A DNA stretch of 2,082 nucleotides from assembly GCF_003334765.1 (NCBI RefSeq), contig NZ_QOWT01000074.1; one strand, written 5' to 3'. Position 1 is the stretch's first letter; every line of letters starts with the position of its first letter. The notes below the pieces were generated by a model. It was not told the origin of the DNA. It ran no database searches and worked only from the letters and a program-made list of their open reading frames with translations. Origin of the DNA: Escherichia coli (lineage in GTDB: Bacteria; Pseudomonadota; Gammaproteobacteria; Enterobacterales; Enterobacteriaceae). Positions 328-1,754 of this stretch are shown piece by piece. A program made the translations under genes and the position numbers.

Positions 328-523
328 TCCCTCCTCACAGCCTTACCCGTAACCGGTTTTTTACATTAAAAAAACAACGCTGAAAATTCAACCGTCAGTC
401 CGGAGACGACCGTTCGGGTTATCACAGAGTGCCTGAGACAGTGTCCTGCCGGAGGTCACTTCAGGGACTCTGCGCATTTTTTACGACGTGGCTATTCCGT
501 ATGAACCATACGGAGATTTAACC
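328..523. promoter_or_regulatory. Divergent intergenic region, presumably carrying promoters for the minus-strand small gene and the plus-strand YagK/YfjJ-like gene
   Basis: 196-bp non-coding gap between two divergently oriented start codons. It contains an AT-rich palindrome (356..375) and a perfect 7-bp inverted repeat at 497..513. I found only weak sigma70-like hexamers (for example TTTACA at 360..365 on plus; TTGAAT/TAATGT on minus at 391..386 and 368..363), so no precise promoter is called. Confidence 0.3.
497..513 (+). promoter_or_regulatory. Perfect inverted repeat CCGTATG-aac-CATACGG overlapping the Shine-Dalgarno of the downstream gene
   Basis: Read directly: 497..503 CCGTATG, loop 504..506, 507..513 CATACGG (exact reverse complement). 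The GGAG at 511..514 is the likely Shine-Dalgarno for the ATG at 524 and lies partly in the 3' arm. Confidence 0.3.
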
Positions 524-1193: not shown

Positions 1194-1346
1194 TTCCATT
1201 GTGTGACAACCACAGTGCTGTAACAGCAACCAGCCTGCTTTACCCAAACTCCAGTCCAGATTTTAACTGAACCGCCATTCACACCCTGACCACGCTGCCC
1301 GTACCGGGACGGCTGTTGCCTGCGTGTCGTCTGGCGGCTGAGGTAT

Positions 1347-1754
1347 ATGACTATGTACGCAAAATCCTTTATCGCTCTTGATGGCAACGGACGTCTGACG
1401 GGCGCCCGTACTGCACAGGCCGCACCTTATGCTAACTACACCTGCCACTTGTGTGGCAGTGCACTCAGATACCATCCGCAATACGAAACTGAACTTCCCT
1501 GGTTTGAACACACTGACGACAGGCTGACAGAGCACGGTCAACAGTGCCCTTATGTCAGGCCGGAGCGCAGAGAAATACAGTTGATTAAACGTCTGCAGCA
1601 ATTCGTACCGGATGCCTTACCCGTGGTGCGTAAAGCCAGCTGGCACTGCAGACAATGTCACCACGATTATTATGGGGAGCAGTACTGCACACACTGCCAG
1701 ACCGGAGGATTCAGTATTCCCCGGACAACTCAGGAGGAAATATGCGAATTCTGA
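1347..1754 (+). CDS. Cys-rich putative zinc-ribbon protein (135 aa; paralog A of a tandem pair), function unknown
   Basis: ORF track 1347..1754 (+). Conserved pattern C-HL-C-GS...PWFEH...C...W-H-C-RQ-C-xx-DYYGE-xx-C. The CxxC-x14-[W/H]F[A/E]H spacing recalls the N-terminal zinc ribbon of CoiA-like competence proteins (CxxC...HFAH); that is a motif-level resemblance only. GAGG at 1340..1343 is 3 nt from ATG 1347 but 9 nt from the in-frame ATG at 1353, so the true start may be 1353. Stop TGA at 1752..1754. Confidence 0.65.
   Translation: MTMYAKSFIALDGNGRLTGARTAQAAPYANYTCHLCGSALRYHPQYETELPWFEHTDDRLTEHGQQCPYVRPERREIQLIKRLQQFVPDALPVVRKASWHCRQCHHDYYGEQYCTHCQTGGFSIPRTTQEEICEF

Follow-up and report, generated by a model that had tools for sequence, protein, structure and literature searches.

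The palindrome that immediately precedes a YagK/YfjJ-like gene in an Escherichia coli genomic island is probably the centre of a translational block that acts in cis, within the 5′ leader of that gene's mRNA, as judged from its conservation and its predicted fold. We refer to the gene as gp2 herein, as its family also carries the name 'inovirus Gp2 family'. The feature is real and conserved, and the comparison of homologous sequences makes it almost certain that it is functional. Its most likely role, given the same comparison and the modelled structure, is that of a hairpin that would sequester both the Shine-Dalgarno (SD) sequence and the AUG and so throttle the synthesis of a Rep-like island protein that is itself uncharacterised. 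As a mechanism this is ordinary, a further example of well-known SD sequestration.

The window, by which we mean the whole 2082-bp stretch of DNA that was analysed, represents one module of a CP4-type genomic island of E. coli. The locus is present in about 3800 of 5426 complete E. coli genomes (about 70%), and multiple copies are frequent. Regulators of the AlpA and Hha types are encoded near gp2 (for the features of the window itself, see Table 1). The gp2 neighbours, alpA and the zinc-ribbon genes, are kept across genera, which speaks against independent movement of the cassette. The 189-residue gp2 product belongs to the YagK/YfjJ family (PF11726) and appears to have a Rep-like (HUH-type) fold with invariant H-Y-H and Y-x-x-K motifs. 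Using this protein as query, searches of NCBIfam, PADLOC and PDB sequences returned no matches, a PHROGs search returned only a family of unknown function, and Foldseek gave no significant match in the PDB. A scan of viral contigs yielded one match only. Our literature search found no functional studies of YagK/YfjJ or Gp2-family island proteins.

Table 1. Features of the gp2 locus, in window coordinates unless a locus is named
Feature	Position	Strand	Remarks
Small zinc-ribbon membrane ORF	124-327	minus
Sigma-70-like promoter match TTTACA-16-GAAAAT	360-387	plus	consensus match, 9/12
Long imperfect hairpin, then CGCA and U6 (477-482)	425-472	plus	predicted fold
TTTTTTAC(G/A) motif	477-485	plus	directly 5′ of the helix; invariant in the E. 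coli clade
Outer 5′ arm, CGTGGCTA	487-494	plus	pairs with 519-526, hence with the start codon
Inner 5′ arm (anti-SD), TTCCGTATG	495-503	plus	496-503 form the perfect 8-bp stem; T495 wobbles with G515
Loop, AAC	504-506	plus	alternative allele AACGAAAC, 5 nt longer
Inner 3′ arm, CATACGGAG	507-515	plus	holds the SD GGAG (512-515)
Outer 3′ arm, TAACCATG	519-526	plus	holds the start codon ATG (524-526)
YagK/YfjJ ('inovirus Gp2 family') gene, 189 aa	524-1093	plus
Second exact copy of the motif, TTTTTTACG	1179-1187	plus	86 nt past the stop codon, upstream of the zinc-ribbon genes
Zinc-ribbon start-region helix	1321-1331 with 1343-1357		seen again in E. coli variants and Serratia
Two zinc-ribbon genes	from 1353; from 1742 past the window end
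IS110-family insertion	L002 3158-4126; L003 2697-3665; near window 1750

Natural variants of the locus were also recovered. Several E. coli strains carry an IS110-family (RNA-guided) element with an internal stop, at an identical site between the two zinc-ribbon genes. Insertion of an IS110 element at the palindrome was considered and rejected, as the insertions of these strains sit between those two genes. A 45-bp copy of the element beside IS1414 in strain NRZ14408 raised the idea of a mobile leader cassette, which we likewise rejected, since the copy is a deletion remnant of the same locus. Natural deletion variants occur among the metagenome copies L133 and L097 and the loci L008 and L009: one has lost the entire leader and SD between CAACC/TAACC repeats (window about 396-520), another lacks 323-474, and two loci retain the hairpin block and have lost most of the gp2 gene.

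The sequence CCGTATG-AAC-CATACGG stands at 497-513 exactly as first described. It is a perfect inverted repeat as predicted, with an actual length of 8 bp rather than 7: TCCGTATG (496-503) and CATACGGA (507-514) enclose a 3-nt loop and make up the sole perfect repeat of at least 8 bp with a loop of 3-10 nt in the window. The 3′ arm does overlap the GGAG of the SD, although this tetranucleotide occupies 512-515 and not 511-514, and 8 nt rather than the claimed 9 lie between it and the ATG at 524-526. In the RNA fold a ninth pair, the wobble U495-G515, is added, together with an outer helix in which CGUGGCUA (487-494) pairs with UAACCAUG (519-526). The structure is therefore larger than the hairpin originally proposed to cover the SD, as the resulting two-part stem-loop (487-526) pairs the SD and the AUG both.

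A palindrome of this kind had been expected about once by chance, and the caveat was right: among dinucleotide shuffles of the window, with loops of 3-10 nt counted, we found a mean of 1.27 perfect 7-bp hairpins per shuffled window. Perfect 8-bp hairpins averaged 0.28 and occurred at least once in 21% of shuffles, so that the palindrome alone, in a single sequence, is not significant. The 46-nt element as a whole (484-529) folds at -15.2 kcal/mol (z = -3.8) and beats 200 of 200 shuffles; the allele with the 8-nt loop reaches -23.3 kcal/mol (z = -6.4) and is also better than 200 of 200. RNA folding, which had been proposed as a check, returned the two-part helix as the minimum-free-energy, centroid and RNAalifold consensus folds alike. 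Pairing probabilities at 37 °C are 0.99 for the AUG and 0.95 for the SD GGAG. The SD value hardly moves with temperature (0.96 at 20 °C, 0.95 at 42 °C, 0.94 at 50 °C and 0.92 at 60 °C), and we rejected a thermosensor since SD pairing stays above 0.9 from 20 to 60 °C. Opening of 509-530 costs 13.8 kcal/mol in silico, and by these in silico values the helix is stable enough to limit 30S binding.

Several of these measures are to be read against their background. Predicted SD pairing does not discriminate, as shuffled leaders average a probability of 0.6-0.8, and we did not use it as evidence. Structured start regions are common among the neighbouring island genes (median -9.7 kcal/mol from -40 to +10), with gp2 ranking fifth of 44. 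Folding is about equally favourable for the plus and the minus strand, so energy cannot separate an RNA role from a DNA role; the lone pointer to the sense strand is that single-sided changes give G·U rather than A·C. Neither strand of the window matched an Rfam family at E values up to 5.

The position of the helix depends on where gp2 begins. Translation from GTG 488 or ATG 524 had been weighed in the original prediction; the GTG is indeed present and in frame, and the choice falls on ATG 524. PGAP annotation uses ATG 524, and the 189-aa form dominates the protein clusters, with 3421 members versus 20 for the 201-aa GTG-start form. The orthologous proteins of Rouxiella, Enterobacter, Salmonella, Serratia, Klebsiella, Cedecea and Pectobacterium measure 188-189 aa, and their alignment starts at M1. 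Between GTG 488 and ATG 524, a common E. coli allele has 5 extra bases, which shift the frame, and a stop closes the upstream frame of Rosenbergiella six codons ahead of the ATG. On these grounds the gp2 start is ATG 524. The start codon is now fixed, while some database entries carry the 201-aa GTG-start form.

Since conservation of the arms had been named as a check on their function, we compared leaders of two sources: diverged copies in E. coli, and a metagenome scan for which a coding-sequence pattern, and not the leader, served as anchor. The E. coli-clade comparison comprised 53 distinct sequences with a protein identity of 84-100%. The arms are under clear purifying selection in this clade: none of the 16 arm positions varies, and only 2 of the 28 positions in 496-523 do. 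Third-codon positions vary at 42 of 100 sites (Fisher p = 5e-4 versus 496-523), and upstream non-coding positions at 140 of 151 (~93%; Fisher p = 2e-20). T495 varies, and 496-503 are invariant throughout. Length varies only through a 5-nt indel within the loop, with the arms identical; among the fetched loci the 3-nt loop AAC is found in 58 and the 8-nt loop AACGAAAC in 18.

Covariation of the two arms had been proposed as a further check. The perfect stem is uninformative here, as it never varies in the E. coli clade. Changes at the other paired positions mostly retain pairs or make new ones. C487U and C522U yield wobble pairs, G488A replaces G-U with A-U, U495C replaces U-G with C-G, and C492U (C492T in the DNA), which is present in most distinct variants, turns a C·A mismatch into a U-A pair. 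By a rough count, 5 of 7 substitution events preserve pairing versus about one third expected, an excess that is only suggestive. In one E. coli variant with an unrelated leader (L061), the SD pairs with UCUUCC.

The comparison across genera drew on loci of Hafnia, Kosakonia, Tatumella, Rosenbergiella, Siccibacter, Salmonella, Serratia, Klebsiella, Pectobacterium, Rouxiella and others, with a protein identity of 60-69%, and their leader can be aligned with that of E. coli (alignment A3). Mean pairwise identity is 0.8-0.9 in the leader from about -57 to -10, 0.2-0.3 further upstream and 0.4-0.5 in the spacer between SD and ATG. As codon positions 1 and 2 give 0.81 and 0.84 and third positions 0.50, the leader from -57 to -10 is conserved about as well as codon positions 1 and 2 and far above third positions. 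The loop-proximal TATGAAC and the TTTTTTAC motif are conserved as sequence, which a plain hairpin would not need.

The SD of these other genera, CCGGAG, has a different pairing partner: the segment C(U/A)CCGGU, which lies some 30 nt upstream and is separated from it by an inner GGUUAU/AUAACC stem. RNAalifold recovers this SD stem unaided. Across its 7 pairs, 91% of cells are paired, five changes lead to wobble, and one compensatory change from G-C to A-U is carried by four sequences of the Tatumella and Rosenbergiella types, probably as a single event. The score of the stem was reached by 2 of 500 column shuffles; inclusion of the E. coli rows adds extra unpaired cells to it. Covariation across the leaders is modest and thin. 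Pairing of the SD has been maintained in evolution. In the aligned columns of A3, the left arm of E. coli, CCGUAUG, falls on GGUUAUG, the inner-left segment of the other genera, whose outer-right arm shares its columns with the right arm of E. coli. The two pairings are consequently mutually exclusive, yet the SD is buried in both. Occlusion of the ribosome site by the hairpin as RNA, the central claim of the original prediction, is therefore supported in silico, as the arms are invariant, the indel is confined to the loop and the SD is paired in every homologous leader. We did not extend this to an SD hairpin throughout the family: contiguous stems of at least 8 bp were found in 7 of 31 distant paralogues versus 1 of 20 control genes, a difference that is only suggestive.

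Upstream of gp2 the only promoter-like match is the sigma-70-like TTTACA-16-GAAAAT, which is conserved in diverged E. coli copies (alignment A1) and, if used, would give a 5′ UTR of about 130 nt. Promoter scans of four other-genera loci returned no matches. The long imperfect hairpin at 425-472 and its U6, as modelled, look like a terminator or attenuator. A terminator scan does not call this hairpin, and the U6 comes only after a 4-nt spacer. The hairpin belongs to the E. coli clade only, where substitutions in its inner part go uncompensated, one lineage has a shorter form owing to a 24-nt internal deletion and some strains have it deleted; the other genera have no equivalent hairpin ahead of the T-run. 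We also considered a decoy SD or a switch within this hairpin and rejected both, as its variants are mostly non-compensatory and the SD-like CCGGAGG of the loop lacks conservation.

In the mechanism that we propose, the inner helix (495/496-503 with 507-514/515) would pair the SD GGAG (512-515) with the anti-SD UUCC, and the outer helix (487-494 with 519-526) would sequester the AUG. With an opening cost of about 14 kcal/mol at the ribosome-binding site, 30S subunits should bind rarely, and the level of the Rep-like protein would be very low. Initiation would need transient breathing of the helix, possibly with the single-stranded U-tract on its 5′ side as a standby site; alternatively, an activator might relieve the block. 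The U-tract could be either such a standby site or part of a -10/start-site region. We infer that the region is transcribed, that its translation is limited by the fold and that relief takes one of these forms.

With SD-sequestering hairpins, expression is expected to drop steeply with helix stability; the MS2 coat gene and the analysis of de Smit and van Duin reportedly provide examples. The gp2 leader resembles such hairpins and the standby model in that a stable local helix covers the SD and the AUG, and in that an unstructured U-rich tract, which in the model could serve as a standby site, adjoins the helix. RNA thermometers of the ROSE and FourU types are similar in pairing the SD with an upstream pyrimidine stretch in a short hairpin. 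The gp2 helix differs from them in being too stable, with a pairing probability of 0.94 at 50 °C, in placing its anti-SD UUCCG in a perfect 8-bp stem and not in a U4 or mismatch-rich one, and in having no Rfam match.

By analogy of layout, the closest documented analogue is the leader of IS200 tnpA from Salmonella and E. coli, in which an SD-sequestering stem-loop blocks 30S binding and the protein is very scarce (PMC4513863). There, a terminator-like inverted repeat is followed by a second repeat that sequesters the SD, ahead of a small HUH-type gene, and the role of a ribosome toehold has been proposed for a single-stranded tract that lies just ahead of the structured ribosome-binding site; the tisB mRNA is the named example of ribosome standby (PMC4513863). 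The order in the window is the same, with the putative terminator hairpin at 425-472 and its U6 preceding the SD helix; this hairpin is poorly constrained and confined to the E. coli clade. The window shows no sequence similarity to the IS200 leader and no Rfam match, its leader pairs the AUG as well, its protein is YagK/YfjJ (PF11726) and not a Y1 transposase, and its gene is not an independent 700-bp mobile unit but one whose neighbours are conserved.

The sequence beside the helix bears on the rival readings. The TTTTTTAC motif has a mean pairwise identity of about 0.9 across genera, and the window holds two exact copies of TTTTTTACG versus 0.01 expected. In the looser form TTTTT(T/A)AC (consensus GGTAWTTTTTTAC), the motif lies on the plus strand at 357-365, 477-485 and 1179-1187. 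It flanks the Gp2 gene in nearly all orthologous loci (L011-L018, L053-L061), in the same orientation on both sides, at about -54 and at +609 to +624 from the ATG, the latter about 45-55 nt past the stop. The downstream copy is usually preceded by a GC-rich hairpin, as in an ordinary terminator. Possible identities of the motif are a -10/start-site region, a U-rich standby site, a terminator tail or a nuclease site. In the window, a perfect 7-bp hairpin CACTGAC/GTCAGTG (1170-1193) holds the second TTTTTTAC motif as its 10-nt loop; this stem is not conserved in the E. coli variants L009 and L061.

HUH enzymes often recognise DNA hairpins. Given this and the flanking motif copies, we weighed a role at the level of DNA, in which the hairpin and TTTTTTAC would together form an origin or end that the adjacent HUH-fold protein recognises or nicks as single-stranded DNA, after the manner of rolling-circle origins or the ends of IS200/IS605. 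We regard such a role as unlikely. In common with rolling-circle dso sites, the left and right ends of IS608 and REP/TnpA-REP elements, the hairpin stands beside a short conserved motif and close to a gene for a protein with an apparently HUH-like fold, and copies of the motif in one orientation flank that gene. The motif would fit a promoter or terminator element equally well. Unlike those signals, the gp2 hairpin overlies the ribosome-binding site, and close orthologues do not share its arms, which are remodelled between proteins that are 65% identical, while the right arm always holds the SD and the E. coli helix reaches the ATG, which only a role as RNA accounts for. The 5-nt loop indel is tolerated, Foldseek offers no significant PDB match for the protein, and the second motif copy usually follows a GC-rich hairpin in the manner of a terminator. 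Nor did we find the varied genomic contexts of an HUH unit, as downstream neighbours are conserved across genera, with one viral-contig match; with alpA and the zinc-ribbon genes kept in place, the cassette does not appear to move itself. It is very doubtful, too, that the flanking TTTTTTAC motifs and their adjacent hairpins are ssDNA cleavage signals, with a palindrome that, like the left end of IS200/IS605, would be dual in nature, a nuclease site as DNA and a translational block as RNA. If this were true, CP4-type islands would harbour the gene cassette as a rolling-circle or peel-and-paste module, either active or domesticated.

The hairpin could also act as RNA with a main role other than occlusion of the SD, either as a 5′-terminal stabilising stem-loop or as a site for a protein or small RNA at TATGAAC, and we consider this quite unlikely. 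Conservation across genera starts abruptly at GTA-T6-AC, where TAnTTT matches three key -10 positions and is followed by a C-then-purine start context; if transcription began after TTTTTTAC, only 2-4 nt would separate the 5′ end from the helix. This match is accompanied by neither a -35 nor an extended -10 element, however, and the promoter scan was negative there. The loop-proximal bases are conserved in sequence, as binding at TATGAAC would predict, but the loop of the commonest allele is 5 nt shorter. Either form of this reading leaves the constant pairing of SD and AUG unexplained.

A chance palindrome without selected function, seemingly conserved because its copies diverged recently, is very unlikely. 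An 8-bp palindrome does arise in 21% of shuffled windows, the E. coli stem lacks covariation, and a decayed pseudogene copy, KFu019, retains the palindrome. Recent divergence is nevertheless hard to reconcile with third-codon and upstream sites that vary heavily among the same 53 sequences in which the arms do not. The cross-genus conservation of the leader, which equals that of codon positions 1 and 2, and replacement of the pairing partner with the SD still paired argue against it as well.

Coupling of the helix to an upstream event had been raised in the original prediction. In its most concrete form, ribosomes on a mini-ORF from AUG 501 to UAA 519-521 (MNHTEI*) would melt the helix and reinitiate at ATG 524. 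The stop of the mini-ORF lies 2 nt ahead of the ATG in the window allele, a GUG mini-ORF of Rosenbergiella likewise stops 2 nt before the ATG, and in the distant marine paralogues L023 and L025 a 10-codon upstream ORF runs from the left arm to an AUGA overlap with the main start. But AUG 501 has no SD and is itself paired, the 8-nt-loop allele shifts the frame to give a 23-codon overlapping ORF, and the upstream AUG of most genera simply shares the reading frame of the gene. As the mini-ORF is limited to the 3-nt-loop allele and lacks an SD, we consider coupling highly improbable. The palindromes of L023 and L025 are very similar to that of the window (TCCTATGA/TCATAGGA and TCCTATGG/CCATAGGA).

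A double-stranded palindromic operator for a dimeric regulator, also suggested at the outset, is extremely improbable: the arms are perfectly symmetric and adjoin a possible promoter region, and AlpA-type and Hha-type regulators are encoded nearby, but the spacing of the half-sites is 3 nt in 58 loci versus 8 nt in 18 with identical arms, a difference of 5 bp or half a helical turn, the arms are not conserved but replaced in orthologous loci, and the single-sided changes that give G·U pairs in RNA would be mismatched half-sites in duplex DNA.

Similar structures were seen at other genes of the module. The start region of the first zinc-ribbon gene (ATG 1347/1353) lies within a helix of UGCGUGUCGUC and GAC(U)AUGUACGCA. 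In other genera alpA, the next gene after Gp2, has its own conserved anti-SD, UCUCCC, which pairs with its SD GGGAGA; the pairing was found in the roughly 100 nt before alpA in L011, L013, L053, L055, L057, L058 and L060. The same leader in other genera contains a possible short upstream ORF that begins just past the TTTTTTAC motif. As far as these sequences indicate, the whole module seems to share the theme of buried ribosome-binding sites.

YagK/YfjJ ('inovirus Gp2') proteins are widespread in enterobacterial islands. A strongly conserved translational block suggests that the gp2 protein is harmful or tightly rationed, which fits a DNA-nicking Rep-like enzyme. Such a block would also account for the gene possibly appearing silent in expression studies, and the leader hairpin is a defined, mutable element for turning the gp2 gene on.
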